A program made the position numbers and the translations under genes. A DNA stretch of 64,000 nt, from assembly GCA_958295855.1 (NCBI GenBank), contig OY282383.1:252481-316480 (forward strand), written 5' to 3'. Below, one piece after another: positions 1,440 to 22,003 of this stretch (positions are counted from its first letter, which is position 1; each line of letters starts with the position of its first letter). The notes below the pieces were generated by a model. It worked only from the letters and a program-made list of their open reading frames with translations, was not told the origin of the DNA and did no database searches. The DNA comes from an uncultured Poribacteria bacterium (GTDB lineage Bacteria; Poribacteria; WGA-4E; WGA-3G).

Positions 1440-2110
1440 ATTCGGTCTTTCATCAATTCAGTTTCAAGGGTAGGCACAAGGCACTACCCCTACGGATTTT
1501 TCCGTAAGAGTTGCAATCCCCAAGGAACCGGGCGGGAGGGAAGCAAAGCGTGGGAAGAAGCTGCTCAAAATCGGTCTTTCATCAATTCGGTTTCAAGGGT
1601 AGGCACAAGGCACTACCCCTACGGATTTTTCCGCATGAGGTATTTACCCCTGCAAAGCAGGGGCGGATACCCGGTTCAAAATCGGGTTTCGTAATGAGTT
1701 CTAGAGCACTCCCTGCTAATTAAGCCTTCAAAACCGAAAAACACTTGCAGCAAAAACCTCCGACGAGAGCTACTCTGTAGGGGCAGTGCCTTGTGCCTGC
1801 CCGTCAGAACAATCCTGACGTTTGCCACTATTTTCAATAGTGGTTAAACTTCCTGATTGCTCTGCAAGGAAAGACAAAAAAAGTTGCATAAGAAACCTCC
1901 GACGAGATCTACTCTGTAGGGGCAGTGCCTTGTGCCTGCCCGTCAGAACTATCCTGCCAATGGTATTTGCCCCTGCTTTGCAGGGGTTTCATACCAATGC
2001 TGATTGCTCTGCAAGGAAAGACAAAAAAAGTTGCATAAGAAACCTCCGACGAGATCTACAGTGCATTGTCAGAACCATCACGCAACCTGATTACTCCGCA
2101 AGGAATGACA
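1440..2110. repeat. composite repeat block (families E, D = gtaggggcagtgccttgtgcctgccc, A, B hairpins and MITE TIR tccgcaaggaatgac)
   Basis: Seen in sequence: 1455-1492 and 1590-1625 match family D. 1570-1690 is a family E copy. 1745-1810, 1895-1990 and 2035-2100 repeat the ctccgacgag.../gcccctgctttgcagggg modules. Confidence 0.8.
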
Positions 2111-2663
2111 GAAAGTTTGCCAATAAATCCTTTCCAGCAGCCGTCAAAATAGACTCCGGATGAAACTGCACACCCCAGACAGGCAAAGTCTTATGCCGAA
2201 TCCCCATGATTTCATCCCGGTCTGTCCACGCCGTGATCTTCAGACACGCCGGCAACGTCTCCCCCTTCACAATCAACGAGTGATACCGCGTCGCCTCAAA
2301 CGGGTTATCCAAGCCTTCGAAGAGCTCTGCGCCATCGTGGATTATCATGGACGTTTTACCATGCATTAACCGGTCTGCCCTGACTACCTCGCCGCCGAAA
2401 ACATCCCCGATGCACTGATGTCCAAGGCATACGCCTAAAATTGGCACCTTTCCAGCAAAGTGCCGGATGACATCGTTGGAGATGCCCGCTTCTCGCGGCG
2501 AGCAAGGCCCTGGCGAAATGACAATCCGTTCTGGAGCAAGTGCCTCCAGTGCATCTAGCGAGACTTTTCTGCTCCGATGCACCGCCAATTCGGCACCGAG
2601 TTCGCCCAGATACTGCACGAGGTTGTAAGTAAATGAGTCATAGTTGTCAATTATTAAAACCAT
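2091..2663 (-). CDS. trpG: anthranilate/aminodeoxychorismate synthase glutamine amidotransferase component
   Basis: [23 protein letters not shown]...[12 protein letters not shown]...FHPES is the class I glutamine amidotransferase signature. The C-terminal tail ...FLSFLAE is encoded by a MITE terminal inverted repeat. Confidence 0.8.
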
Positions 2664-2724: not shown

Positions 2725-4320
2725 CTACGCCCTTAAGAGCCCTTGTTCTGCCATCTCAATGGCACTGAGCAACGCCCGCGCCTTGTTCATCGTTTCGTAA
2801 TACTCGGTTTCGGGAACGGAATCCGCGACGATGCCGCCGCCCGCTTGTACGTAAGCAACGCTGTCCTTGATGACTGCAGTGCGGATAGTAATCGCCGTGT
2901 CAGCACTTCCTGAAAAACTGAAGTACCCCACTACACCGCCGTAGGGACCCCTGCGTGTCGGCTCCAGTTCGTCAATGATTTCCATGGCACGTATCTTTGG
3001 AGCACCGGATAGCGTCCCCGCCGGGAGGCACGCACGAATCACATCGAAAGCGGTGAGATTCTCGCGCAACCTCCCGATAACATGCGAGACAATGTGCATC
3101 ACGTGTGAGAAGCGTTCGACTATCATAAAATCAGTCACTTCAACGGTGTGATATTCACATACCCGCCCGAGATCGTTACGCCCTAAATCGACGAGCATGA
3201 CGTGCTCGGCGCGCTCCTTCGGATCGGCCAGCAGTGTCTGTTCCAATTCGACATCTTCTTCCGCTGTTTTGCCACGCGGCAGGGTGCCTGCAATCGGGCG
3301 TGTTTGGACAAGCCCATCTTCTACCCGCACCATCATCTCTGGCGATGCCCCTACAATGTCAAAACTATCAAACTTCAGGTAATACATATAGGGCGATGGA
3401 TTCACCACCCGCAACGCCCGATAGACATCAAACGAATCCACGGATACCGGACAACTGAACCGTTGCGAAGGCACAACCTGTATGATGTCGCCTGCGGCTA
3501 TGTATTTCTGGGCGCGCAGCACCGCCTCTTCGTAAGCAGCCTTCGTAAAATTCGATCTTTTGTCCTTGCCTAGCTCCAGCGGTTTCTGCTGTAGTTGTGA
3601 CGCAGGGGAAGATCTCGTCGGAGGTTCCTGAGGCCCCGCCTTTGCAGGTAGGCCCCGCGGCACGGTTTCCCCTACATCCGGGCAACCTAACGCTCCTACT
3701 GGAGGAGATTTGAGCTTCTCAACCACTGATTCAATGGTTGCAATCGCATCGGCGTAAGCCGCATCCACATCTCCATCAATGTGAGCGTTCGCCACAACCT
3801 TAATCTGATGATTGACATGGTCAAACACCAAAAGCGTCTCCACAATCATGAAGAAACAATCCGGAATTTGCAGTTCATCTACTGTGTTATCCGGGAGTTC
3901 CTCAACAAAGCGCGCCATGTCATAACTCATATAGCCCACCGCCCCGCCGTGGAACTGTGGTAACCCTTCGACTTTAACGGGCTGGTAATTCTGCATCACC
4001 CCTTCAAGGGCTTGCAACGGATCGTCGCACACCTGTGATACTGTTTCACCTTTCGACAGATACTCGATCGTCACCTGATGCCCCTTGCTATGGAAAAGCA
4101 CAGACGGTTGACTCCCCAAAAATGAATAGCGTGCAACCGTTTCGCCGCCTTCAACGCTCTCCAATAAAAACGCAAAGGCATCGGGCATCAATTTGTAAAA
4201 TGCGGACACCGGTGTCTCCATATCTGCCAAAATGGGCCGATAAACCGGTATCGTGTTTCCTGATTTCGCTTTTTCGCGAAATTCCTTCAGTGTCGGATAA
4301 TACATCAATAACTCCCACAT
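2725..4320 (-). CDS. trpE: anthranilate synthase component I with in-frame repeat-derived insertion
   Basis: Chorismate-binding enzyme motifs (LLESVEGGETVARYSFLG, PSPYMYYL, GAPK..RAMEII, GYFSFSG). Residues ~KLKSPPVGALGCPDVGETVPRGLPAKAGPQEPPTRSSPASQLQQKPLELGKDKRS are encoded by a family A repeat plus a hairpin (plus-strand 3575-3700). Confidence 0.85.
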   Translation of the reverse strand: MWELLMYYPTLKEFREKAKSGNTIPVYRPILADMETPVSAFYKLMPDAFAFLLESVEGGETVARYSFLGSQPSVLFHSKGHQVTIEYLSKGETVSQVCDDPLQALEGVMQNYQPVKVEGLPQFHGGAVGYMSYDMARFVEELPDNTVDELQIPDCFFMIVETLLVFDHVNHQIKVVANAHIDGDVDAAYADAIATIESVVEKLKSPPVGALGCPDVGETVPRGLPAKAGPQEPPTRSSPASQLQQKPLELGKDKRSNFTKAAYEEAVLRAQKYIAAGDIIQVVPSQRFSCPVSVDSFDVYRALRVVNPSPYMYYLKFDSFDIVGASPEMMVRVEDGLVQTRPIAGTLPRGKTAEEDVELEQTLLADPKERAEHVMLVDLGRNDLGRVCEYHTVEVTDFMIVERFSHVMHIVSHVIGRLRENLTAFDVIRACLPAGTLSGAPKIRAMEIIDELEPTRRGPYGGVVGYFSFSGSADTAITIRTAVIKDSVAYVQAGGGIVADSVPETEYYETMNKARALLSAIEMAEQGLLRA

Positions 4321-4562
4321 GTAGAAAACTTACATCAAAAATCTCCGACGAGATCTACCACAACGTCACAACTACAGCAGAAACCGCCGGAACTAGGCAA
4401 TAACAAAAAATCAGAAACCTCCGACGAGATCTACAGTGCATCGTCAGAACTATCCTGCCAATGGTATTTGCCCCTGCTTTGCAGGGGTTTCATACCAAGT
4501 TGTGAATTTTAATGAACAACTTTTTTATTTCTTACTTATGCTGATTACTCCGCAAGGAATGA
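4321..4562. repeat. composite MITE-like element (family A module, gcccctgctttgcagggg hairpin, TIR ctccgcaaggaatgac)
   Basis: Same module order is seen at 35040-35345, 47800-47950 and 54465-54700. Confidence 0.8.
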
Positions 4563-5658: not shown

Positions 5659-5689
5659 ATAGCCATAACAATTGAATAAACTAACGGTT

Positions 5690-5965
5690 CAGGTGCCGAA
5701 TGTCGGTATCTACCCCTGCAAGCAGGGGTAAATGCCCATTACGGAGAATAGGGAAGCGCGGTGAGAATCCGCCACGGCCCCGCCACTGTGAACGATCTTT
5801 TGCTCTAATGAAAAGTAGTAGGCACGCTCCGCGTGCCGTACACACAAATCGACGGGAAGATTTTGTAGAGCAAACTTTGGCTTGCAACTGGTATCTGCCC
5901 CTGCTTTGCAGGGGTTTAATGCCAATGCCCCAAAAGATCGGAAGTCAGGAGACCTGCCTGCATCG
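5690..5965 (+). promoter_or_regulatory. cobalamin (AdoCbl) riboswitch
   Basis: Core AATAGGGAAGCGCGGTGAGAATCCGCCACGGCCCCGCCACTGTGAACG at 5747-5794 matches the conserved GGUGnnAAUCC / CGCCACUGU blocks. The B12 box AGTCAGGAGACCTGCC sits at 5943-5958. The variable region between them contains a family C repeat (5812-5848) and a family B hairpin (5893-5920). Confidence 0.75.
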
Positions 5966-6364
5966 TGTTTCACGCATCTGCTTTCGCGGGAAAGCAGTGG
6001 AACTGCGCGCAGCAGTATCCTGTCAAATGTAGGAAGGGCGAAGTTAGTCACGCATTGGAAATGCGTGCTGAAGTTCTCCCCGATAGAAAGCATAGAGTCT
6101 GCAGGATCCGCCTCATAATCTGTGTCGCCTTGTCCCCTGTCTTTTCTATTATGAAAGCAGGGGTTTCTTGTTTCATAGGGCATTCACCCCTGCTCGCAGG
6201 GGCAATTGCCAGAAGGAGGATTTCGGCGAAGAAGGTTTAGTCACGCATTTTTAATGCATGCTGAAGTTCGTAGCCGAAATTTACTATTAAAAAGTATGAA
6301 CAGATTTTTTTTCACTTGGCGGCATTTCTCAAAGGCATTCACCCCTGCTCGCAGGGGAAACCAT

Positions 6365-7666: not shown

Positions 7667-7905
7667 TAGTAGGCACGCTCCGCGTGCCGTATACAAAAGT
7701 GTAGGAGCGCGAAAAGATTTTACCCCTGCTTTGCAGGGGTAAAATACCAGTGTCACAATCTGGTTACTTTTTAGTTGTAGAGTGCTCCCTGCTAATTGCG
7801 GTTGCATGAGAAATCTCCGACGACATCTTCCACTGCGTCACAACTACAACCAAAACCATTGGAACTAGGCAATAACAAAAGATCAGAAACCTCCGACGAG
7901 AGCTA
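7665..7905. repeat. composite repeat block (families C, B, E tail, A)
   Basis: agtagtaggcacgctccgcgtgccgtatac, then ttttacccctgctttgcaggggtaaaatacc, then ...ctccctgctaattg..., then a family A copy. Confidence 0.8.
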
Positions 7906-7907
7906 CA

Positions 7908-9974
7908 ATGCCGTTAAAACTACAGAACGCAGTCAACACACTAGGCATAGACAAAAAATTGCTATTGCTCCCACTGCTTGTCGTCGCTTGCACAACGGAA
8001 ACGAAAGAGAATCCGTTGGCATGGCAGATTACCTTTTTTTCGCTCGGTGCCAAGGTACAGTTTCACAACGAACCACCGATAGCGCGGATTTCTGCCTTCA
8101 ATTCTGACAGAATGCTGGTTGCACAACTCAATTTCCCTGGACCACCCCGACAGATAGAATCGCTCTATTTTGAATGGCAGGAAGGGGAAACCTATAGATT
8201 TGAAGCGGCTTTGCACACGGGGCAAATCAGTGTTCAAACGGTGACTGCCCCGCGTGTGCATGCCCCCGGCAATTTAGAGATTGCTATCCCTTACGGTGCA
8301 GCGAGGCAAGCGACAACGGATGCAACCGCGTCAAAGGCACTCGTGGTACAAGGGAGCGAAATGACAGCCACGCTCATCGTTACAAACGGCAATGCCCCAG
8401 CTACCTTTGAGGTGGAGCTCTGCTTACCATCTACGCTCGATGTCGTCCAATTGCCGATAGAATGGCAAACCGAGACGAACGGCACCGAGACTTGTCTGTT
8501 TACCGCTGGCACCTTTCGCGTTGCATCCGAGGTCTGGTATCGTGAATTAGTTTTGAAAATTCCCCAGAATGGCTTTAAAAACTTACATCAGACGAGAGCT
8601 ACCACAACGTCACAACTACAGCAGAAACCACCCCAACTAGGCAATAACAAAAAACCAAAAATTGCAGGTATCGTCCGTTTTAAGACAGATACCGCACAAA
8701 CTTGGACGCAAAGGACAGAAGTGCAGTTGCGTTCGGCAACAGTAGCAGAAATCGCCGAGCACCTCTCCATAGAATCTATCCAAATGCCTACGGATGTAGC
8801 CGGCATCCCCCATCTGCAGCGACAAACCGATACCATCTATTACCAGCGCCCTTTGTTCCGTTGGTTAAAAATGCCCCAAACTGATGCCTTTCAACCCATA
8901 GCCTACCAGACCGTGCGGCTCCGCAATCAAGCCCAAGAAACTATCCATGTCGTCGTCTCTTCCATCAACCGAGATACGAAGAGTGGCGCAGCAGTGAGGT
9001 TTCTTGCACCGCCGGATGCCGTGAACGCCGGCACAGACCGGAGCATCAGTTTCGCCAGTTTGCCAGGCGGTGAAGTGACAGCAATTCCGCTGCCCATCTA
9101 CTTTCAGTCCCCCCATAGGAGCGATCTCCGAATCGCGACAGGCGAATACGAACGTGACATTGCAGTGAAGGTATGGGGAAGCGACGCGACAATCCTTCGC
9201 GAACAACGCCCACTCCATCTCATCGTTCCAAACCGACATGCGCTGTTTGTGAGTGGGATAGCAATCATCGCGAGCTGCATCGGGCTGATAGTGCTGCTGC
9301 CCTTTAACGAGCGAAGACACAAGCAGTTCTTCGCTCGTTTCACGACTAAACAACTCATCGTCATCGCCCTATTTGGCACAACGATCTTTGTCGTAGTTAT
9401 CGTGCCGTCAACGCTGTTTCTCAACCTCATCCGCGCCCTCCTTGGGCCCGTCTCTGTCTTGCTGACAGGCTTAATTAATGAGACGCTCTATTACGCGTTG
9501 CTGACAGCGTTGCTAATTTATATTAACGGAGCCCCCAGAGCATCCCGCATTACCAGAACCAAAGTAGTAGGCACGCTCCGCGTGCCGTACACAGCTGTCC
9601 ACAAAAGCCGGCCAACCCACGGTAAAGGGGGTGTCATCTTGCTTGTCTCCGCAGTGCGCTTACTTCTCGGCGGGGTTACGTTCGGGCTTTTCACGCCGAT
9701 GACGATTATCTATACAGGCACGAGCGTCCTCCTGCTTGAGACGGGATTTCTGCTCGTACAAAGGCGCGGTTTGCTGGCGTGGGCACTCGTGCTCGGCATC
9801 TGCGATGCAATCGCCGTCTACGTCGATTTTCAACTCTCTATCCTGTTCTACCGCCTCTTTTACGCCGATTGGTATATTATCCTCCGAATTCTGGTGGAGG
9901 GGTTTGCGTATACCTTTATCGGTGTGCTGCTCGGTGCCAGATTAGGACGCGGCCTCCGGCGCGTAGCCGATTAA
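7908..9974 (+). CDS. lipoprotein with large extracytoplasmic domain and C-terminal ~6-TM region (hypothetical)
   Basis: Lipobox-like KKLLLLPLLVVAC. Likely TTG start near 7959, because the first 17 codons are repeat-derived. C-terminal hydrophobic helices. Family A (8585-8650) and family C (9573-9600, peptide VVGTLRVPYT) repeats lie in frame. Confidence 0.55.
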   Translation: MPLKLQNAVNTLGIDKKLLLLPLLVVACTTETKENPLAWQITFFSLGAKVQFHNEPPIARISAFNSDRMLVAQLNFPGPPRQIESLYFEWQEGETYRFEAALHTGQISVQTVTAPRVHAPGNLEIAIPYGAARQATTDATASKALVVQGSEMTATLIVTNGNAPATFEVELCLPSTLDVVQLPIEWQTETNGTETCLFTAGTFRVASEVWYRELVLKIPQNGFKNLHQTRATTTSQLQQKPPQLGNNKKPKIAGIVRFKTDTAQTWTQRTEVQLRSATVAEIAEHLSIESIQMPTDVAGIPHLQRQTDTIYYQRPLFRWLKMPQTDAFQPIAYQTVRLRNQAQETIHVVVSSINRDTKSGAAVRFLAPPDAVNAGTDRSISFASLPGGEVTAIPLPIYFQSPHRSDLRIATGEYERDIAVKVWGSDATILREQRPLHLIVPNRHALFVSGIAIIASCIGLIVLLPFNERRHKQFFARFTTKQLIVIALFGTTIFVVVIVPSTLFLNLIRALLGPVSVLLTGLINETLYYALLTALLIYINGAPRASRITRTKVVGTLRVPYTAVHKSRPTHGKGGVILLVSAVRLLLGGVTFGLFTPMTIIYTGTSVLLLETGFLLVQRRGLLAWALVLGICDAIAVYVDFQLSILFYRLFYADWYIILRILVEGFAYTFIGVLLGARLGRGLRRVAD

Positions 9975-10105: not shown

Positions 10106-11821
10106 ATGAAGCCAATTCAGTTTTTGAGTCTACTCTGTTTGCTAATCGCGCTGCCCATTGTAGGGGTAGTGCCTTGTGCCTACCCTGCCGATATGAACGT
10201 CTTATGGGTTCGGGCGGGGGCAGTGCTCGAAACAGAACATAAACACAACGGTGAACCCAAAATCAACGTTGCAACCATATCTGAAGGGACAACACAAGCA
10301 TTAACAAATACACCAACAATCCAGCGGCTTGATGCGAAGCGTGTGCTGTTGCAATTTGCATGGCAGCCCAACCAAGCCTATCGGTTTCGCATAAATAATG
10401 CCGTAACAGCGGCGACCGCGCCGCTTAAACCGCTCCCGTATCTCATTCGCACAGTCGAATTAGATGGGCTTCTATCGCTCCTCGAAAATCTGCGGCAGCC
10501 CGCGAAACCAACAGCGATTACCCTAGGGCAAAGTAGCACGCACCCCCCGCGGGTTTCCGTACACAGCCGTCCACAAAATGCCCAGAAACTCGCCATCGCA
10601 ACCGACACCGGGCACCTCGCGATTCTCAATCCGCTCACAGGCGAAACGCTTTGGAACACCCGCATCTCGGAAGGCTACGTCAAGCATCTCGCATTTAACC
10701 ACGATAACACCATCCTCTACATTGGGGAACAGGCAGCGGACGGATTTATCTATGCTTATGCTCTGTCGCAGTCTAAACCAGTACTGCTCTGGAAATACCG
10801 CACCGCCGACGACATTGAAACCTCCACACCGAGTGACCCGGGCAGCGTCTACGCTTATGTTAGTTACCCCGGCGCAGCGTGCATCCGAGTCCTGCCCAAC
10901 GGTGATGCCCTCGTCGCCAGCGTGCATTCGTGGACACACAACGGCACGCCACAGCGGAAGTCACAACTCTACCGGTTTAACGGAAAAACAGGCGATGTAG
11001 CATGGAAATGGCCCAGCGAGGGCGCGTCGCCGAAGGTGCTGCGTTGGTTTGACATAAGTGCTGATGGAAAAACGCTGTCCCTGTTAACAGACAACAGCGG
11101 CAAGGGCAACGGCAGACTCAGCGTTCTTGATGTCGACTCCGGCACAGAACAATGGCACGCCAGTTTTGAACCGCTCACGCCCTATTTTGAAGGTGTTAGC
11201 TTTTGGCGCGGTGTTAGCATGGCACCCGATGGTAAGTTCATCAACGTTACAACGGACGACGGACGTGCCTTCATCTTTGACGCGACTGATTCCGAACCGA
11301 TTTGGCATGAAAACTTGGCGACACCGCTCGAGGTCAGCGGCGTGCCGATTATCGCCACAACTGGCACTATTGGTGCGACAGATGCTGCCGCGCTCTTTGT
11401 CACGGGCGATACATACATCCCCTATCATCTCCAGCAGGGCGCGCAACGTCCTTCCACCGCGCACCCGAACGGGATGACGCTATTCGCCTACTCATGGCGT
11501 GGCGAAAAGGCCTGGCAGTGGAAACTAGAGAATATGCCGCAAGGCTTACGCATTGATGCGAAAGGGCGTTATGCTGCGTTGGCTGTCTCCAAGCGGAGCC
11601 AAAACCCGAACGAGAGTCTACACGGCGTTTCCGTGTTTGACCTGACAGCAGAAGGTAGTGGCTTGGCAAAATACCTCTACACCTACCGTACGGAAGGGCA
11701 ACTCCCCTACGATACGCTTGCCATCAGTGCGGATGGCACGCTCATCGCCATCGTTGAGAGGCCGATTGTAATGCCAGATGAGACGGTGCGTGGGAAAAAT
11801 CGGGTGCATGTGCTGTATTGA
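10106..11821 (+). CDS. secreted PQQ/WD40-like beta-propeller repeat protein (hypothetical)
   Basis: N-terminal signal peptide. Repeated ...ETLWNTRISEGYVKHLAF... and ...GDVAWKW... propeller-like blades. A family D repeat encodes VGVVPCAYP in the signal region. Confidence 0.6.
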   Translation: MKPIQFLSLLCLLIALPIVGVVPCAYPADMNVLWVRAGAVLETEHKHNGEPKINVATISEGTTQALTNTPTIQRLDAKRVLLQFAWQPNQAYRFRINNAVTAATAPLKPLPYLIRTVELDGLLSLLENLRQPAKPTAITLGQSSTHPPRVSVHSRPQNAQKLAIATDTGHLAILNPLTGETLWNTRISEGYVKHLAFNHDNTILYIGEQAADGFIYAYALSQSKPVLLWKYRTADDIETSTPSDPGSVYAYVSYPGAACIRVLPNGDALVASVHSWTHNGTPQRKSQLYRFNGKTGDVAWKWPSEGASPKVLRWFDISADGKTLSLLTDNSGKGNGRLSVLDVDSGTEQWHASFEPLTPYFEGVSFWRGVSMAPDGKFINVTTDDGRAFIFDATDSEPIWHENLATPLEVSGVPIIATTGTIGATDAAALFVTGDTYIPYHLQQGAQRPSTAHPNGMTLFAYSWRGEKAWQWKLENMPQGLRIDAKGRYAALAVSKRSQNPNESLHGVSVFDLTAEGSGLAKYLYTYRTEGQLPYDTLAISADGTLIAIVERPIVMPDETVRGKNRVHVLY

Positions 11822-12072
11822 TTTTTCGTCATTCCTTGCGGAGAATTGAGAATGCAAGATAGGTATAACAATGCCCTATAAATCTCGTCGGAAGTTTCTG
11901 ATTAAAGCAATAAGGATATTACCCCCGCTTTGCAGGGGCAAATACAATTCTGTCACCGCCCGCTCTCTTATTTAGTTCGCCCGTAGGAGGGCACCCCGAA
12001 TCCCGATTTATTCCGTGGCGGTGACAAAAAACTGAAACCTAAATAGTCTTAGGAAAACAATGAATCAGCCTT

Positions 12073-12101
12073 GACAAATTCTGCCATTCAATGTATACTT
12101 A
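12073..12101 (+). promoter_or_regulatory. sigma70-like promoter (ttgaca-17-tatact)
   Basis: ttgaca at 12073-12078 and tatact at 12096-12101, upstream of the 12148 CDS. Confidence 0.4.
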
Positions 12102-12147
12102 TAGAAAGTACAAATGGCTAACACGCATCCAATTAATAGGAATCAAA

Positions 12148-13374
12148 ATGCAACATTTCACAGATGCAGCGTTGCTACAAATTATTGAAGACGACGAATC
12201 TGATCGCGTTGAGTTCAAGGAGTCTTTGTCTGGCAGTGCTCCGAAAGAAATCAGAGAAGCCATCTGTGCTTTTGCCAACGATTTGCCTCGCTACGAAAAA
12301 CCGGGATTCGTTTTCGTCGGAGTGAGGAAAGACAAAACTATTGTAGGGCTACCGGTTACAGATGAATTGCTCCGACAGTTGGCGGATATGAAAACTGATG
12401 GTAATATTGTGCCCCCGCCATCCCTGACAGTAGAAAAGCGTGTGCTGAAAGGCAAAGAAGTTGCTGTAGTTAAGGTGGAACCAACTGACTCACCGCCAGT
12501 TCGCTTCAAGGGCATTATCCGTATCCGTATCGGGCCTCGCCGAGGCATTGCTACCGCGCAGGATGAAAGGATTCTCAATGAAAAGCGTCGGCACAAAGAT
12601 GCCCCTTTCGACATTCAACCGGTTCTCGCGTCAGACCTATCCGATCTCAACCTAAGCCAATTTGAACACGAATATCTGGTGCAAGCCTTTGACCCTGACA
12701 TATTAGAAGCCAATGAACGCACGCTTGAAGAACGCCTAGCGGTAACGAAAATGATTGCCGCAACTGATGAGCCATTCGTGACTGTGATGGGAATCCTCGT
12801 ACTGGGCAAAAACCCACAAGATTTTCTTCCAGGGGCTTACGTGCAATTTCTCAGAATTGATAATATTCAATTAACAGACGATAGGGATATTCGTGATAGC
12901 GAGGCCATCAGGGGAGCAATCCCTGATATCCTCCGTCGTCTGGACGATAAACTGATAGCACACAATCGCACAGAGGTTGATTTCACGACTAGCCCTGTCG
13001 AACAAAGTACAGCACTTTATCCTATCCCGGCGTTGCAACAAATCATCCGGAATGCTGTTATGCACAGAACTTATGAAGCAACTCATGCACCGGTTCGCGT
13101 GTCATGGTTCAACGACCGCGTTGAAGTTTTAAGCCCCGGCGGTGCTTTTGGCGCAATAACGGTTGAAAATTTCGGGCAGCCCGATTTAACTGATTATCGC
13201 AACCCAAATCTGGCAGAAGCGATGAGAATCCTCGGTTATGTGCAAAAGTTTGGCATAGGAATACAGATAACTAGAAGTCTCCTGAAAAAAGCAGGCCATC
13301 CTGAACCAGAATTTGCAATCCTTGATAATTACGTGCGGGCAACCATAAAACTAGCACGCAAGCAAGAAATTTAA
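12148..13374 (+). CDS. AlbA_2 (Schlafen-like) DNA-binding domain protein with C-terminal HATPase-like domain (often misannotated RecG-like)
   Basis: MQHFTDAALLQIIEDDESDRVEFKESL...AICAFANDL...VFVGV is the typical AlbA_2 N-terminus. The C-terminal half resembles the ATPase-like domain that accompanies it. Confidence 0.6.
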   Translation: MQHFTDAALLQIIEDDESDRVEFKESLSGSAPKEIREAICAFANDLPRYEKPGFVFVGVRKDKTIVGLPVTDELLRQLADMKTDGNIVPPPSLTVEKRVLKGKEVAVVKVEPTDSPPVRFKGIIRIRIGPRRGIATAQDERILNEKRRHKDAPFDIQPVLASDLSDLNLSQFEHEYLVQAFDPDILEANERTLEERLAVTKMIAATDEPFVTVMGILVLGKNPQDFLPGAYVQFLRIDNIQLTDDRDIRDSEAIRGAIPDILRRLDDKLIAHNRTEVDFTTSPVEQSTALYPIPALQQIIRNAVMHRTYEATHAPVRVSWFNDRVEVLSPGGAFGAITVENFGQPDLTDYRNPNLAEAMRILGYVQKFGIGIQITRSLLKKAGHPEPEFAILDNYVRATIKLARKQEI

Positions 13375-13415
13375 GGGTATTTTACCCCTGCTTTGTAGGG
13401 GAAACCGATACCACC

Positions 13416-14438
13416 ATGACAATGCCTATTCCAGTTTTAACTTTCTTCAACAATAAAAGCGGAGTTGGTAAGACATCCCTCGTTTATCATCTCGCGTGGA
13501 TGTTATCCGACATCGGCTATCGAGTACTTGCCTGCGACCTCGACCCACAGGCAAACCTCACTAGTATGTTTATCAATGAGGAACGCCTAGAAGTACTGTG
13601 GCCTGACAGCGGCGCGCGAAAAACTATCTATAATGCCCTCCAACCGCTTTTGGACGGAACGGGAGACATTGAGCCACCTCACTTGGAGAATATAACACAC
13701 GAACGGCTAACGCAAGAATTAAGCCTCATCGTCGGCGACCTCATGCTATCTTCAACCGAAGATGAACTTTCGAGCCAATGGCCGGAGTGTTTGGACCGGC
13801 GTCCCCGTGCCTTCCGCGTCATCTCGGCACTATGGCGAATTTTGCAAAGGGCGGCGAGCGACCGGCAATCCAATATTGTCTTGGTAGATGTGGGGCCCAA
13901 CCTAGGGGCCTTGAATAGGGCGGTGCTAGTCGCTACTGATTACGTTATCGTTCCACTTGGAGCCGACCTATTTTCACTCCAAGGGCTGCGGAATCTCGGC
14001 CCGACGCTACAAGAGTGGCGAAAGGGGTGGCAAGAGAGACGTAGCCGCAACCCTATCCCTGATTTACAGATGCCCAATGGATTGATTCAACCGATTGGCT
14101 ATGTGGTGCAGCAACACGGGATTCGTCTGGAACGTCCAATTAAGGCTTACGACAAGTGGGTTAACCGGATGCCGGCAGAATACGCCCGAAACCTGCTAGG
14201 CAATAACAAGGGCCCTTACGCCAAAACACCGGCAGAAGATAAAGAAAATGCCCTCGCTACTGCCAAGCATTATCGCAGCATCGTCCCGATGGGACAGGAA
14301 GCGCGCAAACCGATTTTCCACCTCACCACGGCCGATGGAGCTATCGGCAGCCACGCTGCTGCTGCCCGCACCGCGTACAAGGATTTCAGGATTTTGTCAG
14401 AAAAGATAATCGACAGAATAGGAATTAGGAAGGCGTAA
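13416..14438 (+). CDS. ParA/MinD-family ATPase with C-terminal extension
   Basis: Deviant Walker A FFNNKSGVGKTS, then ACDLDPQANLT, then the ...VDVGPNLGALN...ATDYVIVPLGADLFSLQGL pattern. Confidence 0.7.
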   Translation: MTMPIPVLTFFNNKSGVGKTSLVYHLAWMLSDIGYRVLACDLDPQANLTSMFINEERLEVLWPDSGARKTIYNALQPLLDGTGDIEPPHLENITHERLTQELSLIVGDLMLSSTEDELSSQWPECLDRRPRAFRVISALWRILQRAASDRQSNIVLVDVGPNLGALNRAVLVATDYVIVPLGADLFSLQGLRNLGPTLQEWRKGWQERRSRNPIPDLQMPNGLIQPIGYVVQQHGIRLERPIKAYDKWVNRMPAEYARNLLGNNKGPYAKTPAEDKENALATAKHYRSIVPMGQEARKPIFHLTTADGAIGSHAAAARTAYKDFRILSEKIIDRIGIRKA

Positions 14439-14519
14439 ATATTCCGCAACAAGCGCGTTAATCTATTCGGGCGCGAGCCCTGTGCCTTGCACCACTCTCA
14501 AGCCTTTGCTGTCGATGCA

Positions 14520-14770
14520 AAAGAGAAACATCAGAAATCTCCGACGAGATCTTCCACTGCGTCACAACTACAGCAGAAACCACCAGAACTAGGCAAGAAC
14601 AAAAGTCTGAATCTCTGTGCTAATTGTCGCCGTTGGGTGCAGCTTCCCACGTTCATATTTTGACAAGGAAGGTTTTCGAAATACATCATCAGGAACCTCC
14701 GACGAGAGCTACCACAACGTCACAACCACAGCAGAAACCACCAGAACTAGGCAAGAACAAAAAATTTGAC
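14520..14770. repeat. two family A repeat copies
   Basis: atctccgacgagatcttccactgcgtcacaactacagcagaaaccaccagaactaggcaagaacaaaag at 14530-14600 and 14695-14762. Confidence 0.85.
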
Positions 14771-14877
14771 TGCTAACCAATCCATCAATTGCAGCCTCCA
14801 GGTCCCCGAGGGACGTACCACAGGCAAGTCTAAATCTTCTCAGTCGTTCTCCTAACATGATTGTGATACCCATCAGT

Positions 14878-15111
14878 TTACTTCAAGGAGAGGAAAAGTG
14901 CGATAAGCGCGATAATCGCAGCAGCACAACCTGCAGCGGCACCGACTTTGCCCCACATGGCAGATGCGGCTTCCTCTTTCCCCTCCAGTTTGCCGCGTAT
15001 CCAACCCAACTCTCGACTTACCTGCTGCTTCCACTCTTCCGTTTTCTCTATGAAGTTCTCTGTTTTCTCAATGAAGTTCAAAACGCGTTCTTTGAAGTCC
15101 TCATCAGTCAT
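14878..15111 (-). CDS. small tail-anchored membrane protein (XhlA-like coiled-coil + TM; hypothetical)
   Basis: MTDEDFKERVLNFIEKTENFIEKTEEWKQQV...GAAAGCAAAIIALIALFLSLK. Internal 7-aa tandem duplication and a C-terminal TM helix. Start chosen at the ATG ending at 15111. Confidence 0.35.
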   Translation of the reverse strand: MTDEDFKERVLNFIEKTENFIEKTEEWKQQVSRELGWIRGKLEGKEEAASAMWGKVGAAAGCAAAIIALIALFLSLK

Positions 15112-15398
15112 GATACTTCTCCTGATAACCTTGGGCGGATTGCTTGAATTTGACCGCGGAGCGAATGTGAGACATAAACTCCGCCTGTCTTGCAAGGAAT
15201 TTGGTGTTAGATATACGGTAAACATGAAAAGTGTAGGGGGAGCAAAGGTTTTGTTGTTCCCCCTACCTTTACTGTCTATTCTGTTAGCGTTTCATTGATT
15301 TTACTTGTGTCATTAGTAACCTGACAAATCTAGTTGTTCCTAGGACAGGCAGGTTCGCTAAAAACGACTCTTCCGACAACTTTGGACTAGCCAAATCG

Positions 15399-15980
15399 CT
15401 AAGATTCATCAGTTGTTACAAGCGCTAGTTTGATTAGAAAGGAGAGGACGCTTTCGATATCCTCTGGGCTCACGTCCCAACCATACTCTCCGGCAACCTG
15501 TCGCACCTCTCCTATTGTACTTTTCCCTCTCCAATTGACAATGTAGTGGACTTTTGCCGCGATGGAAAGCTTGTTAAAATCGTTAGAGATCTCCTGGGCG
15601 TTGAGGTTCTGAAGTGTTTTGTCCCATTTCCGGAAGTCAGGTTTTTGCTGGGTAGCCTCCCAGATGTTTTTAGCATCAGGGGTTAGAGAATAAGCGTGCC
15701 TGCGAATTTCTCCGAAAGCGTTTCGTTCAATTGAAGTGGAAGTAAAAGACTCCGTGACTTCATTGAGGACACCATAGTTTACTAGCCCATCTAGGTGCTC
15801 TGCAATGAAACTACTATAAGGTCCGTAATAGTGTGCGGAGAATCCAAAATTTTCTTTAAGCAAAACGCTGAGAAAATAGATTTTCTTTTGGAGGAGGGTT
15901 CTCCCCTGTAAACCTGTCTCTCCTTCCCTCGCAATAACAAGTAGAAGGACATCGACAATGTGCATGTTGTCTCCTTTCAT
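15399..15980 (-). CDS. Panacea-domain (DUF4065/GepA-like) protein, copy 1
   Basis: LLQKKIYFLSVLL...HYYGPYSSFIAEHLD fits the Panacea LQKLLYF...GPV core. The C-terminal 60 aa are nearly identical to the paralog at 22204-22785. The ~120-bp 3' flank (15301-15420) is also duplicated at 22120-22230. Confidence 0.55.
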   Translation of the reverse strand: MKGDNMHIVDVLLLVIAREGETGLQGRTLLQKKIYFLSVLLKENFGFSAHYYGPYSSFIAEHLDGLVNYGVLNEVTESFTSTSIERNAFGEIRRHAYSLTPDAKNIWEATQQKPDFRKWDKTLQNLNAQEISNDFNKLSIAAKVHYIVNWRGKSTIGEVRQVAGEYGWDVSPEDIESVLSFLIKLALVTTDES

Positions 15981-16162
15981 GAAGAACGCAAAATTTTCTG
16001 GATTTCGCTTTCCTCTTTTCCTGAGATTGTTTCGTACGGGGCATAGACTTGAATTGTCTCTAAAGCAGAGGTATCGGCGGAGTGTCTTACGAAAAACAGT
16101 TCACTTGCATAATCGCTCATAGCCCTTGGTTCCGACTGATTCTCGTCAAAAAGGGACAGCAT
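15977..16162 (-). pseudogene. remnant of HD-protein C-terminus (homologous to end of 22782-24179 gene)
   Basis: MLSLFDENQSEPRAMSDYASELFFVRHSADTSALETIQVY... aligns with ...ITIFDENQSEPRAMSDYASELFFARPATDNEASLETVQVY... at the C-terminus of the HD protein. No upstream HD body is present. Confidence 0.45.
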
Positions 16163-16316
16163 TTGTAGCGTATAGACACATACCTTCCCGCCTTAGTCCC
16201 ATAGGGACGGCATGTATATAGAAAACATTCGCTCCTCTTTTTAGCCCCGTAGGGGCGGCATGTATTGGAGGTTCAAACCTGAACATCATTTAGAAGCCAA
16301 AAATTTTACACATCCA

Positions 16317-17933
16317 TCACTCACCGAAGATGTCATCATGTAACTCCTCATAGACTGCCATACCAGGTTGAATGAGTGGGGCGAGAATATCTCTCATGAA
16401 ACTGTCTATGTTGTTTCCCATTCGTGATGGCTTGAAAGCCTCTCGCGCAGCGTGGTGGAGGTCTTGAACAATAGATTTCAGATCAGCGGCATCTTTGACA
16501 ACTTTACGCAATTCCTCAATCTTATCGGGCTTGTTTTCCTTTTCACCTAACTTAGTCAGCACCTCATCATCTATCAGGTAACTTTCAATTGTTCGCCGTG
16601 ACAAAGTGCGGATGCCTTTTTGGGCATACCTCTCTTTTGCCGAATCGGTTGCATAATCCCCGTCTCGGAGCCTGACGATTTTCGCCCTTTTCGCAATTGC
16701 CGTTATAACAGGAATCAGATTTGTGTCAGCGTTTTCTACATCTTTTCTGCCCCCGATGGAAACAAAAAGTGTTTCAGGGTGATGCTTCTCAAAAATCTGA
16801 TTATAGCACGCGGCATCAAAGCCTTCGGAAGCATCTTCGATTTTGCCTTCACAGAGAACAATCTGCTCGGGTACCACTAATTCGGAGAGGTCATCAAGGG
16901 TGACTTCATAGATGCGCGCCCAGAGATTTGAATCCGGCGGAGTGGGTATAAGCGTTACAGGTTCGTCGAAGTCGTGCCTATCAAAATTAAGGAAAACGAC
17001 AGATTTCGGACACTTTCGCCAGAGATCTTGCGCCTTGCGCACCATGCCAATGGAATGGGTCGCAATCCAAAGTTGGGACTTGTCAGGAATAAGGTTGTAA
17101 AGTTCCTCAAGGAGTTGTCCCTGAAGTTTCGTGTGCATGTGGGATTCAGGTTCGTCAATGCAAATGATGGTTTCGTCGTATTCAGCCTTTGTGACTATGA
17201 CATCCAGGAGCAGATCTAGTGCCGCCTTTTCCCCGCTGGCGAGATTCTGATATGAAAACCTCTCGCTTGTCCCTTTGTCAAATTGGAAGAATCCTCCGTC
17301 TGCCGGATGTCCCAAGTTCTTTAAAACCAATTTTGGGTCGTTGAATAGTCTACATATTGCGCCGCGGAGTTCGCCAAGAATCTCGTCTTGAAGCTCGGTT
17401 AAACTTTTCCCGTGTTGTCCGATTTCCGAACTACGCTCTAGCCATCGAGATGCTAACCTCCAATAATTTGATACAACAGCCTCATCATTTTCTATCAGGC
17501 TGACAAGCCGACGTTCCTTTAGTGGATTGTCCCTGTTGATGGTATGCGAATGAGTCATCGTATAGTTTCTGTAGGCGGAACGCGCGCTCACGCATTTGTC
17601 CCATTCATAGTCCGAGTACGGGTCTCCTCCGTGGAATTCTACATTTACGCAATCCGATATAAAACCACCTAAGAATCCAAGAAGGCTTTCTGATGGATAA
17701 TCACTAGATTTGACATAGTACTCCAAGATTTGGTAATAGTCATCCGATGTTTTAGTTTCATCTGTTGGAATGGGTGATAAATAGGTATAGAACTTCAGAC
17801 CCTCAAACACCGAGGACTTTCCGCATCCGTTGGGACCTATCATGACCACGAGCTTCGCCGTTTCAGGTAAGCCTTCAATAGTTAGGTCTGTGAAACGTTT
17901 GAAATTTTTCAGTTTAATCGATTTTATCTTCAT
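16317..17933 (-). CDS. OLD-family ATP-dependent endonuclease-like protein (ABC-type ATPase + C-terminal TOPRIM-like domain)
   Basis: Start at MKIKSIKLKNFKRFTDL. Walker A GPNGCGKSS, Walker B ICIDEPESHMH, then WIATHS. C-terminal VLCEGKIED...IGGRKD...RLRDGDY resembles the TOPRIM E / DxD motifs. The ORF's upstream 76 codons are repeat-derived. Confidence 0.7.
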   Translation of the reverse strand: MKIKSIKLKNFKRFTDLTIEGLPETAKLVVMIGPNGCGKSSVFEGLKFYTYLSPIPTDETKTSDDYYQILEYYVKSSDYPSESLLGFLGGFISDCVNVEFHGGDPYSDYEWDKCVSARSAYRNYTMTHSHTINRDNPLKERRLVSLIENDEAVVSNYWRLASRWLERSSEIGQHGKSLTELQDEILGELRGAICRLFNDPKLVLKNLGHPADGGFFQFDKGTSERFSYQNLASGEKAALDLLLDVIVTKAEYDETIICIDEPESHMHTKLQGQLLEELYNLIPDKSQLWIATHSIGMVRKAQDLWRKCPKSVVFLNFDRHDFDEPVTLIPTPPDSNLWARIYEVTLDDLSELVVPEQIVLCEGKIEDASEGFDAACYNQIFEKHHPETLFVSIGGRKDVENADTNLIPVITAIAKRAKIVRLRDGDYATDSAKERYAQKGIRTLSRRTIESYLIDDEVLTKLGEKENKPDKIEELRKVVKDAADLKSIVQDLHHAAREAFKPSRMGNNIDSFMRDILAPLIQPGMAVYEELHDDIFGE

Positions 17934-18162
17934 ATAATACACTCCTAAACGTTGAATTGGTATGATTGCGGAGGCAACCCCTGTCCAGTCACATACTGCG
18001 CCGCTGGAGCGGAAGAGGGGAGCCTCGGTGCGATGCTCCTCTTTAGCCCTATAAGGGCGACATGTGTATAGTACCGCGGGCCCACCCTCCCCCTTAGCAC
18101 CAGCGGGGGCGACATGTGTCGAATGAAAACCAAAAATTAATGGGAGGATGGAGGTGTTCATT

Positions 18163-18270
18163 GTCTGAATCGCGGATTACGCAGATTACGCGGATTAACG
18201 CGGAGAAGAGCAGAACCCCTCTTAAAATCCGCGTTTATCCGTGTTATCCGTGATAATCCGCGATTCAGAC
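18163..18270. repeat. 108-bp palindromic element with GCGGATTA-type iterons
   Basis: gtctgaatcgcggattacgcagattacgcggattaacgcggag...ctcttaaaatccgcgtttatccgtgttatccgtgataatccgcgattcagac. The 17-bp terminal inverted repeats enclose 3-4 tandem 9-bp units on each arm. Confidence 0.5.
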
Positions 18271-18323
18271 AAAAAAATAATCCGCGCTCGCAACTCAGAA
18301 ATAAGGAAAACGCGCGACTCCCA

Positions 18324-18354
18324 CACACCTACATCCCTGCATCCCGATACGTCC
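18324..18354. repeat. 31-bp direct repeat copy 1 (cacacctacatccctgcatcccgatacgtc)
   Basis: Second copy at 24334-24364 with 1 mismatch. The two copies flank the MTase + Panacea-2 + HD segment. Confidence 0.7.
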
Positions 18355-18360
18355 ACTTAA

Positions 18361-21300
18361 TTATCCCACAGTGTTTTTCTCTCCTTCCACGCCCATCACT
18401 TTTTCCACAATAGCAACTTCATCATCAGTTAATCCATAAAGCGCGTAAATCAACGCATCAATTTGCCGCTCATCCGCGGCGCTCTCTGCCTTCGGGTTTT
18501 CCCATTTCGCTGACAGAAGCTGTTCCACAAGTTCAATAATCGGTTGTTGCTGCTCAGGTGACACAAGCGGAATAGGTATTTTGCCAACATAGTAGTTATC
18601 AAAGTGCATCGTCATGAGTGCAGAGCAAAAGATAAACCGGTGGGCATACCAATTCACTAGCGTGGAGTTGAATAGGGCAGCAATAAAATTCAGGCTAAAA
18701 TTTGGATTCGTGAGAAACGTATTTTCGACAGTGTCAACTCCTAATATATCACCGGTTTTGTCAACGGTAGCCTTTATTTTTTTGTGCGTCACGATATTCT
18801 GAGAGAGGATTTTCGGCTGAAGTAGCGATTGAATTTTCTTATCGGCAGAATCAAGAGTGTCGCGGTTAGCAAACCCTCTCACACCATCAATTCCGTAGCG
18901 GCTTATATTTCTTCCACCAATCACTTTAATTGCACCAGTAGCGTTCAGGAATTTCTGTACCGACAAACCTCGTACACTCTGGGAAATTTCGCTTAGGTGC
19001 GTCCCGATACGATTTAGCTTTAAACCTAACTGAATTTCATCGCTGGACACATCGCATATCCATGCCTCAAACGTTTTCGGATAGTCTTTGGAAATCTGAG
19101 TCGTTTGGGTAAACGTATCATTGACAAACTTCCGAGCTGTATAGAAATCATTTTTAGACTGGGAACTGTAGACGAAAACAACCTGTTCCAATAAGACATT
19201 CTCAAAAGCCCGTTCAACATCAACGAGAACAATGGCTTTTTCTGACAAAGTGAAAGCTAAGCTCTGCCAAGTTTTAGAATACAATAAGGATTTGGGAACT
19301 ATAAATGCGAGGTTACCATCAGGTTTCATCAAATGATTTTTGGCATAATCAATAAACAGGGCGGCACTGTTTGAATTTCGGGTATCTTGAAGGTTGGCTT
19401 TAATCTGCGCTAGTTCAGCTTTCGGAATTTTAGCACCATAAGGGGGATTGCCGATGGCAATGTCAAACCCATCTTTCACACCGAACATCCACTCCGTGTC
19501 AAAGAAATCGGCGACAGCGTTCTGGTCATACGCATCCCAGGTGGCAATTTTCTGGGCCTCTCCAACACTCGCTTTTAACCTTTTCTCACGAACCGTGTAC
19601 GCCTTCTGAAGTTTTTCACGTAATTGATTGCGCGTCCGTTCTGTCTGCAGCTGAGCAACCTGTTCCGCTATCTTGTTTTGCTCACTCCCCACCCAGTGCA
19701 CATGCTGGGCTATCAATGCCTGCTTCAATTGTTCCCGAACGCCTGCCTCTTGGCGGATGTACCGGAGTTTTCGTTGCCGGGTGTTCGCGTTGAAATACCT
19801 CTGGCGGATAGCACCAATTTCAGCGCGTATCTGCCGAATGTTGTCGGTTTCAAGCAACAGCTGCTGGGCGTCTGTATTTAGCCCAATGAGGGTATTGGCA
19901 GCAACGAACTTCACTTCCAGATTGGGCAGCGGCCGAATGCCGTAGTTTGCCGCGCGGTTCTCGTTCGGCACCTGCTCAATGATGAGCGAGATGAAAAAGC
20001 GGAGTTTGGCAATCGTGACAGCGATGGGTTGAATGTCCACGCCATAAATGCCGTTTTGGATAAGGTAGAGCTTGCGTCCGTAGTCGTTGTAGCGGTTCGC
20101 TTCGGAGAACACCTGCTCGATACCCGCAAGTGCAGCTTCGCGGCTTTGCAGGTCAGGAATTGTTTCTGCCTGCTCGAGTTGTCGCTGTTTCCAGCGTTCA
20201 TTCTGCGGATCCAGTTTTTGGAGAATCAGCACCAGTTTATTGAGAATGCCCATCGGGAAAGCACCAGAACCGACTGCCGGATCGATGATTTTGAGTTCGT
20301 CTATCGCTTGAATCATTGACATGATTTCATCTTCATAGATGAGGTGTTTATTGGGATTATCTTCCGTACCTTGCCGGTCATAGGCAAGGAGATCTTCGCG
20401 GAGCCTGCCCTCCAAGCCCTCCCCGTGGCCGTCGGAGGGTTCAACCTTCTGAAGGAAATAGGCGATGAGCGCCTCGTCTACCATGTAATCAACTATCTGC
20501 CGTGGGGTATAGTAGGAGCCGGTGGCTTTGCGCGCGGTGGACTGTGTTTCCGGATTAGACGCGCCGAGCAGATTCTCAAACACCTGCCCGAGCAGTTCCG
20601 GGTCGAGGGCGACTTCTTGCTCAATGGGCGTGTTTTCCTCTACCGTGAACTTATAGCGGGAAAAGAGCGGAAAGATGCCGTTTTCTTCGTCAAAGAAGAG
20701 TTTTGTCGGGACGTGTAGTTTCCGCCTGTCGTTTGGATTGTCAGTGAAACAATCAACGCGCGCCCCACCATCACCGGGCGCCTCAAACGTATCCAGGCAG
20801 TCGAACAACCCGCCGTTAACAAACGGCACCTGCTTGAGGTACTCCAGAAATGCGTCTGCATCTTGGAGGAGATCCGCGTAGCGATATTTGCTCGCATCTC
20901 GATGATCTGGGTTATTGCGCCTACTAAAGACGCGTTCACTTATCGGCGTATTGAGGGTGGCAAAAAAGAGGTTTTGGAGGACAGCCTGGTAGTAATCGGA
21001 ACGCTCTTCGGTAGACGCGAGCTGCGCTCGCCACTTGTATGTTACCCCGCTTTGCGGGGAAGCATACCTGTCCCCGGTAGAACTGGCATGGGGCTCGCTA
21101 TCTCTCAGAAACGCTTGCGCGCCTTCTCTCTCAAAAAGTGCCGGAGGCACCAACCCCTTTTCCTTCAGAAACCAGATAAAGAGGAGCCGTGTTATCAGCC
21201 GGATGCCCTGCATCGCATTCGCTGCATCCGGAAATCTACAGGCCGCCTTTGCCCAATCATACCATTTCTCAAGGTCTCGGTAAAAACGGCGGTTGAGTGC

Positions 21301-21972: not shown

Positions 21973-22003
21973 GTCAGGCCTGCTTTTTCCACTAAAACGG
22001 AAA

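Follow-up and report, generated by a model that had tools for sequence, protein, structure and literature searches.

A complete dispersed repeat and an older REP-like piece in the interdomain linker of anthranilate synthase component I from an uncultured Poribacteria bacterium

The gene trpE, which encodes anthranilate synthase component I, was analyzed in a 64,000-nt stretch of contig OY282383.1 (positions 252,481 to 316,480, hereafter the window) from an uncultured Poribacteria bacterium. Candidatus Poribacteria are uncultivated symbionts of sponges. The trpE gene (2725..4320, minus strand) carries in its interdomain linker a complete copy of a dispersed 76-nt repeat, here called family A, and next to it what appears to be a piece of an older, unrelated repeat. 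We consider it likely that this insert is translated and tolerated as a passenger, and that it sits in a disordered loop between the domains of a TrpE that is still functional. In the proposed course of events, a 45-48-nt piece of a GTAG-tagged hairpin element resembling repetitive extragenic palindromes (REPs) would first have entered the trpE linker. Later, in the common ancestor of the window and its sister genome, a complete family A element would have landed beside the SNFTK motif and displaced about 40 nt of native linker, by which the frame would have been kept. The ribosome would most likely read through the insert; the resulting TrpE would have a larger, disordered loop on its surface but keep its normal fold, catalytic residues and TrpG partner. 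The inserted DNA would be a neutral passenger that survives by having fallen, with an open frame, into a length-tolerant loop.

The trpE copy of family A lies at 3556-3631 on the minus strand and is complete, in sense orientation and in frame. The length of the family was set by an alignment of 19 sequences from the window and the sister locus L081, namely 16 family A copies and three head-sharing relatives from other families. The trpE copy aligned over 76/76 family A positions without insertions or deletions. It matched the consensus of 10 intergenic copies at 65/76 positions (86%), and the intergenic copies matched it at 82-96%. The core ACAACTACAGCAGAAACCGC matched seven window sites at no more than three mismatches and none in 100 shuffles. 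The repeat in trpE is real, complete and far above chance. A preliminary description of this DNA had quoted a 67-mer, which is the reverse complement of window positions 3558-3624, lies inside trpE and encodes the peptide quoted with it. The non-coding copies mentioned there were also found. They are all intergenic and on the plus strand: a tandem pair upstream of panB (427-502 and 503-578), one copy just upstream of the trpE start that is 96% identical to the consensus (4335-4410), one upstream of the open reading frame (ORF) 7908-9974 (7807-7882), and two at 14531-14606 and 14689-14764. Within the window, the trpE copy has its best inverted-repeat partner at 14531-14606 (97 nt, 82%). The 17-nt head CCTCCGACGAGATCTAC occurs at 33 window sites, nearly always intergenic, and is common to several other repeat families. 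Family A often stands head-to-tail in tandem with modules that have the same 25-nt head.

Could the repeat have arisen in trpE itself? The linker is by nature extremely variable, both in length and in sequence, and it might have grown by slippage or duplication, with the dispersed copies stemming from trpE. We give this local origin practically no chance. The trpE copy is one of at least nine in the window and at least seven in L081, it is no nearer the family consensus than the intergenic copies, and it has the 5' head of several other families. Relatives at 83-88% identity lack family A in trpE.

The interdomain linker comprises 52 residues (K204-R255; 3556..3711, minus strand) and joins helix 185-204 to the conserved SNFTK motif, which in turn leads into helix 260-275. 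Family A encodes (P)QEPPTRSSPASQLQQKPLELGKDKR and abuts the S256 codon of SNFTK; its share of the linker is 25 codons, QEPPTRSSPASQLQQKPLELGKDKR (75-76 nt). It is preceded on the minus strand by an 11-nt piece (3632..3642; AAGGCGGGGCC on the transcript strand) that aligns to ATCGAAGTGGCC of the relative L082. Judging from the colinear comparison of the window with L081, L082 and a further relative, L083, this piece is probably a remnant of the native linker. The older insertion of 45-48 nt occupies 3643..3690 on the minus strand (48 nt in the window), has its core GTAGGGGAAACCGTGCCGCGGGGCCTACC at 3647-3675, encodes LGCPDVGETVPRGLPA and contributes approximately 15-16 codons. A tryptic peptide from the 3556-3690 segment would be, for example, SSPASQLQQKPLELGK. 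The preliminary description had proposed an in-frame, repeat-built insertion of approximately 50 residues. The insertion is in frame and built from a repeat. Its size was overestimated, because family A supplies 25 codons, the net gain is 13-28 residues, and 52 residues is the length of the whole linker.

The older piece appears to derive from a decayed GTAG-tagged REP-like element (family GTAGGGGCAGTGCCTTGTGCCTGCCC). Its core GTA[C/G]GGGC[A/G]GTGCC matches the 5' half of the window repeat GTAGGGG[C/T]AGTGCCTTGTGCCT[G/A]CCC. This repeat has 12 copies in the window, whose C..G / T..A stem variants covary perfectly. The copies in the trpE genes of the window, L081 and L082 match that 5' half at 13/14 positions or better, when a 3-nt insertion in the window is allowed. 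In 854 kb of loci searched at no more than one mismatch, the only matches were one true L081 copy and the trpE linkers of L081 and L082, against a chance expectation of 0.27. The palindrome is decayed in the trpE copy. At this place a cctgcaaaggcgggg hairpin had been described earlier. At up to three mismatches it gave no match to the abundant CCCCTGCAAAGCAGGGG hairpin family, which has approximately 23 window sites. The segment also folds no better than shuffled sequences (z = -0.24) and is colinear with non-hairpin sequence in L082. The supposed hairpin would instead be the 3' end of the decayed REP-like piece together with the 11-nt native remnant. The idea of a single insertion of repeat plus hairpin survives for its family A part, while the single event gives way to two nested events of different age.

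The relatives of the window were compared to trace the two events. A genome scan with one genome per species provided 80 loci, 48 from Candidatus Poribacteria and 32 from other phyla. The 48 closest loci all belonged to Candidatus Poribacteria, with 67-81% amino-acid identity. The family A segment was found in 0/48 of these trpE loci and in 0/32 loci of other phyla. The linker, counted from the helix ending ...EKL to SNFTK, is 27 residues long in 40/48 Poribacteria loci, compared with 52 in the window. No protein identical to the window TrpE was on record in a database look-up. Among 143 TrpE proteins listed in database matches, the family A segment was present only in P0001, the product of L081, which is 97% identical, has 524 residues and carries the same insertion. 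The proteins P0002 (L083) and P0004 are 88% and 87% identical and have 497 residues with a 23-residue linker, and P0003 (L082) is 87% identical and has 512 residues with a 38-residue linker. The net gain of the window linker is thus 13 residues over P0003, 28 over P0002 and 25 over the usual Poribacteria protein. A 45-nt block, GTAGGTAGCACGGATGTACGGGCAGTGCCGCAGTGCAGACCTGCA, is all that the L082 linker has beyond the L083 linker. This block recurs in diverged form in the window and L081, and it is absent from L083 and L084. In the colinear DNA comparison of the window and L081 with these relatives, the block is followed by 11 nt and then by family A, which replaces approximately 40 nt of native linker. 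The two events can be followed through linkers of 23 residues (before both), 38 residues (between them) and 52 residues (after both).

Repeats commonly cause misassembly, and a repeat copy might have been joined wrongly into trpE. L081 lies on a 3.98-Mb ENA contig, ptg000023l, whose name suggests a hifiasm long-read assembly, and it shares synteny with the window, the nucleotide identity being 94-98%. It comes from another assembly and another sample record. Its trpE copy has the same junctions and seven substitutions within the 76-nt element. Because this independent assembly shares the junctions and has substitutions of its own, an assembly or chimera artefact is unlikely in the extreme; the frame and the homology of both flanks are also kept. 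An assembly error had been named at the outset as one way in which the insertion could prove false, and the presence of the insertion in L081 speaks against it.

The length of family A, 76 nt, is not a multiple of three, and the net difference from L082 is 76 - 40 = 36 nt. The reading frame was apparently kept because approximately 40 nt of native linker were lost alongside the gain. The junctions in trpE read GGGGCC/TCAGG… and …AAAAGA/TCGAAT and show no duplication; the loss of approximately 40 nt of native sequence could have removed one. Terminal inverted repeats are not present in family A, as the consensus ends TCAGAAAyCTCC… and …GGCAAkrACAAAAA are not complementary. In the native linker of L082 and L083, CTCCGCCGAG agrees with the repeat head CTCCGACGAG at 9/10 positions and shares its codon phase, and this linker ends in CAAAA, as family A does. 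This hints at a microhomology-guided replacement at the trpE linker, a post hoc and unproven suggestion.

The trpE gene is an uninterrupted ORF of 531 codons from the first ATG. Because MYYPT opens all orthologs, the true start is probably M6 (ATG at 4305-4303). Two Pfam domains were identified: Anth_synt_I_N at residues 33-173 (E 3e-37, profile coverage 1-138/140) and Chorismate_bind at residues 260-513 (E 1e-95, profile coverage 2-257/257). Among solved structures, mycobacterial TrpE (7bvd and 5cwa) came out as the best relatives (E ~1e-127). The motifs LLES (L52-S55), IAGT (A344-T346) and PAGT..GAPK (P433-T436, G439-K442) are invariant columns in an alignment of 138 sequences; we take their functional roles in TrpE from general knowledge. 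Directly downstream, trpG (2091..2663, minus strand), encoding the glutamine amidotransferase partner, is intact (Pfam GATase, E 4e-62). The same trpE-trpG arrangement is found in L081-L084. The product thus has both domains at full length, the kept motifs, the fold and an adjoining trpG, as expected of a TrpE.

Symbionts often lose biosynthetic genes. The window is also loaded with repeats, with 26% of its non-coding bases in families of at least three copies, so trpE might be a pseudogene or encode a crippled enzyme in a symbiont fed tryptophan by its host. We consider such decay very unlikely. The gene has no stop codon or frameshift, contrary to the pseudogene that had been considered as a possible outcome. 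Outside the linker, the ratio of non-synonymous to synonymous changes per site (pN/pS) between the window and L081 is 0.37-0.43, with 1% of nucleotides different. The full-length Pfam scores, the invariant catalytic residues, the intact trpG and a confidently predicted fold also oppose decay.

An AlphaFold2 model of the window TrpE was built on an alignment of 138 diverse homologs, widened by a search seeded with an Armatimonadota TrpE. The model had a mean predicted local distance difference test (pLDDT) score of 86.7 and a predicted template modelling (pTM) score of 0.88. In Foldseek it matched 5cwa with template modelling (TM) scores of 0.80/0.84, and 7bvd was likewise matched. Residues 212-245 were the only internal segment with pLDDT below 50, and residues 205-254 had no secondary structure. 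The flanking helices 185-204 and 260-275 had pLDDT values of approximately 97 and 95. In the alignments to 7bvd and 5cwa, query residues 211-252 stood opposite chain residues 232-240 only. The window linker was the longest among 138 and 81 aligned homologs, with medians of 20 and 27 residues, and 217 other homologs had linkers of 18-39 residues. P0005, P0007, L078 and L009 also have long linkers. Residues 212-236 were the only internal part of the window protein opposite gaps in more than 90% of 80 homologs. According to the model and these alignments, both insertions are placed in a predicted disordered, length-tolerant interdomain loop outside both Pfam domains. Whether the insertion falls in a loop had been proposed earlier as a check, and the prediction places it in one.

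The rate of change of the insert was estimated from the window and L081. The linker differed at 11/150 aligned positions (7.3%) and by two codon indels. In the same syntenic blocks, non-coding DNA differed at 6.2% and coding DNA at 1.9%. The family A part of trpE had six non-synonymous and no synonymous changes. Since the segment diverges at about the non-coding rate, the data argue for a passenger rather than a selected module, and the insert appears to drift at an approximately neutral rate. An apparent excess over the neutral rate (13 changes/150 nt against a pS of 0.02) was dropped after the non-coding calibration. Gene conversion among the copies was also unsupported, and, set against the family consensus, most differences proved to be derived changes in the branch of L081.

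Exaptation of the inserted peptide was considered as well. The peptide could be functional, as a flexible tether, an interaction or regulatory site, or a modulator of tryptophan feedback, and be kept by selection. The insertion predates the separation of the window and L081 lineages. Family A has two stop-free frames among its six, both in the sense direction; the one in use specifies a hydrophilic peptide in which Pro, Thr, Ser, Gln and Lys are abundant. The three genic copies found (trpE, ORF 7908-9974 and L081 sucD) all use the same one of the two open frames and give similar peptides, ..QLQQKP..LG.[DN]K[KR]. If both frames were used equally, such agreement would have a probability of 0.25, that is, one in four by chance. 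The segment is predicted to be disordered, it is missing from every other lineage examined, and the non-coding rate of divergence with its six non-synonymous changes is not that of a selected module. Exaptation is therefore regarded as unlikely, though it is the strongest of the alternatives considered for trpE.

Removal of the segment after transcription or translation, in the manner of an intron or intein, would leave a mature protein without it. The genome has many hairpin-forming repeat modules that might be processed as RNA, which is nothing direct. With 76 nt and 25 residues, family A is far under intron or intein size. None of the repeats matched Rfam at the gathering threshold or at E<=5. 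No significant fold was found for family A (z = -0.49 for the copy at 14516-14612, z = -0.32 for the trpE region). All three genic copies are in an open frame, as expected if they are translated. We judge removal highly improbable. No promoter-like or terminator-like site was found inside the trpE insert.

A tolerated, translated passenger in the loop of a working TrpE remains our explanation, and several points count against it. That the insert is translated, that the enzyme stays active, and in what order and by what mechanism the two integrations took place are what we infer from sequence comparison. A second, insertion-free trpE may be present elsewhere in the genome. The insertion would not be a clean one, and the loss of approximately 40 nt was reconstructed from an 87%-identical relative rather than from the true ancestor. 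Lastly, the shared frame of the three genic copies fits chance but is also compatible with some selection on the peptide.

Repeats were also found inside other genes. As had been noted before, the same repeat occurs in ORF 7908-9974, where the peptide TTSQLQQKPPQLGNNKK is present. This family A copy (8575..8654, plus strand) has the same orientation and frame as in trpE, reads …TTSQLQQKPPQLGNNKK… and adds approximately 23 residues. The ORF is conserved at 56-66% identity in 17 Poribacteria genomes, has no Pfam match and is membrane or lipoprotein-like. Its family A copy is present in the window and L081 only and is lacking in the 17 Poribacteria orthologs. A second, different GTAG-type hairpin repeat at 9561-9593 adds approximately 17 residues, and this site has received independent insertions in the orthologs L074 and L014. 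The annotated start codon and first 17 residues of the ORF lie within the repeat copy 7877-7957. A third genic family A copy was found in sucD (succinyl-CoA ligase alpha) of L081, at L081 14279-14354 (sucD 13763-14698, minus strand), a locus just outside the left edge of the window. It is read in the trpE frame, ..QESPTTSSTTPQLQQKPSKLGNDKK-LIGPNCPG, and gives 27 residues against 5 in E. coli SucD 1jkj, so that approximately 22 residues are added.

A 27-nt GTAG-tagged hairpin (GTAGGGGCAGTGCCTTGTGCCTGCCC plus one nucleotide) is in frame in four further genes, among them essential genes of cell-wall synthesis and division. In murG (57021-57047) it lies in the interdomain linker and faces a gap in PDB 7d1i. 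In murD (60216-60242) it stands opposite a gap in PDB 3lk7. It occurs twice in the N-terminal extension of ftsW (58728-58754 and 58867-58893) and once in a PQQ-propeller gene (10160-10186). These copies encode WAGTRHCPY, RAGTRHCPY, GQAQGTAPT or VGVVPCAYP. Repeat families of at least three copies account for 1.2% of the coding bases of the window, compared with approximately 26% of its non-coding bases.

Another module, consisting of the head plus ...TCTCCGCAAGGAATGACGAAAA, lies antisense at 56280-56361, 57548-57631, 2022-2110 and 63417-63489 and overlaps an annotated stop codon. The distance between its head and a gene's 3' end is repeatedly 45-48 nt. This module may supply murG, ftsW and trpG with their C-termini and stop codons. 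A cobalamin riboswitch at 5674-5975 on the plus strand (Rfam RF00174, 64 bits) has insertions of 36 nt and 135 nt in variable regions. They coincide with a GTAG-type hairpin at 5813-5843 and a CCCCTGCTTTGCAGGGG hairpin at 5898-5914. The repeats seem to invade structured RNA as well. A composite module at 279-410, 1593-1724 and 63124-63255 joins the CCCCTGCAAAGCAGGGG hairpin to a hairpin that resembles a T-arm (ACCCGGTTCAAAATCGGGT), and the order of the two recalls the 3' half of a tRNA. As ARAGORN calls no tRNA or tmRNA, we gave up reading the hairpin modules as tRNA-like.

Six repeat families were tracked, and all were frequent in the window and L081. In the trpE neighbourhoods of 47 other Poribacteria and L082-L084 (approximately 500 kb) they were almost absent, with two single borderline matches. 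A family A 21-mer had no exact match in a metagenome contig collection. The window and L081 have intergenic repeat arrays of unequal length and content, for example window 1465-2000 versus L081 12321-12580. Because the families are frequent in these two genomes and nearly absent in relatives, and because the arrays differ, the sequence data suggest that the repeat expansion is recent, lineage-specific and still turning over. The segment at window 11830-16074, with Schlafen/AlbA_2 and ParA-like genes and two family A copies, is missing at this position in L081 (1752-1874).

This segment overlaps a defence-island-like cluster at 12091-27755. The cluster contains genes for Schlafen/AlbA_2 with HATPase_c_4, a ParA-like ATPase, AAA_15/AAA_21, an Eco57I/MmeI-type restriction-modification fusion (1215 residues), an HD protein and an SNF2 plus PLD helicase (1100 residues). 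An unannotated ORF of 193 residues occurs twice in it, at 15399-15980 and 22204-22785, as a 300-nt repeat at 91%.

The window ORFs that were scanned, a part of the total, contained neither a transposase nor a domain of a REP-associated tyrosine transposase (RAYT; Y1/HUH); the two genomes were represented by 64 kb and 21 kb of sequence. The intact 26-nt hairpin GTAGGGGCAGTGCCTTGTGCCTGCCC was found as an exact match on more than 120 metagenome contigs, which is a lower bound. Eighty of these contigs had a guanine-cytosine (GC) content of 30-72% and different flanks. On these 80 contigs, 26/89 copies (approximately 30%) lay within open frames of at least 120 residues, and a crude motif filter found no convincing HUH-motif ORF within 1.2 kb of the 89 copies. 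The 26-mer often adjoins other GTAGGGGC...-type hairpins on the metagenome contigs. Since REP families are usually species-specific, this breadth is unexpected. Nothing describing these repeat sequences or their peptides, including the 26-mer, was found in the literature.

A wider reading of these data can be offered tentatively. This Poribacteria lineage could be a second, independent "Rickettsia-like" case, in which unrelated small repeats colonise housekeeping proteins at scale, and the 26-nt GTAGGGGCAGTGCCTTGTGCCTGCCC hairpin could be a REP moving horizontally between distant bacteria. The families would be the non-palindromic 76-nt module and two GTAG-tagged hairpins, the proteins those of trpE, sucD, murG, murD, ftsW and others, with some loops hit repeatedly. 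We hold this to be a possibility with the odds against it, though it deserves more weight than any of the alternatives weighed above for trpE.

The trpE insert is a clean, datable case of selfish repeat DNA joining an essential enzyme without breaking its frame. Such insertions inflate or split protein alignments, and in the annotation of metagenome-assembled genomes they can be mistaken for assembly errors or pseudogenes. They also point to loops in which 25-30 additional residues are tolerated. Should the phenomenon extend across the genome, this lineage would allow the entry of new peptide segments into proteins to be studied.

In-frame colonisation of functional genes by repeats is established for Rickettsia palindromic elements (RPEs) and for intragenic copies of ERIC, BOX and MITEs, or miniature inverted-repeat transposable elements (PMC10969869). 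RPEs in frame in protein genes were described by Ogata et al. (2000), as related in PMC10969869 and PMC3733652. As far as these accounts go, family A resembles RPEs in being a short dispersed repeat found in intergenic DNA and within unrelated housekeeping genes, in several genes per genome. It is likewise read in frame, adds a conserved peptide and leaves the host ORF intact at places compatible with the fold. Here a dispersed repeat is in frame in trpE, ORF 7908-9974 and L081 sucD. Family A differs from RPEs in its length, 76 nt against approximately 100-150 nt in the same accounts, and in not being palindromic, with no inverted repeat and no fold better than shuffles. The host phylum is unrelated to Rickettsiales, so homology is not expected, and the two are likened by their features. 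In trpE, moreover, two unrelated elements are nested in one loop.

MITEs such as ERIC, BOX, Nezha and the Anabaena MITEs (PMC10969869) are, like family A, small, non-autonomous and high in copy number, with occasional intragenic in-frame copies. Unlike them, family A lacks terminal inverted repeats, its trpE junctions show no recognisable target-site duplication, and it often stands head-to-tail with modules of the same 25-nt head.

A GTAG-tagged REP consists of a 5' GTAG followed by an imperfect palindrome, and intragenic GTAG/CGTC REPs are known in several species, where they encode 20-30 residues when dimeric (Di Nocera et al. 2013, PMC3733652). The older trpE piece and the 27-nt copies in murG, murD and ftsW share this anatomy, with the 5' GTAG, the imperfect palindrome and compensatory stem variants. 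The Poribacteria copies are also high in number and in frame within genes. A 5' tag, an imperfect palindrome of 20-40 nt and a high copy number are all found in the family of the older piece. The differences are that no RAYT gene was seen in the window, that decay of the trpE copy has erased most of its hairpin, and that the 26-mer is spread over contigs of very different GC content, which is not usual for a REP family.

The small dispersed repeats of cyanobacteria, the subject of Elhai and colleagues in 2008, are reportedly very short, mobile and mutually nesting, and lie within conserved genes and RNAs. Family A is likened to them by description only, as sequences, sizes and host phylum differ.

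Judged by its sequence, family A would fall outside RPEs and MITEs as these are defined, and the older piece would fit the definition of a GTAG-tagged REP. The kind of event is known. What is notable here, in a case apparently undescribed for this phylum, is the non-palindromic element, the nesting of two unrelated elements, the intermediate states in relatives and the uncultivated host phylum. Overall, the phenomenon of RPEs and intragenic REPs is extended to a phylum of uncultivated sponge symbionts and to a non-palindromic element.

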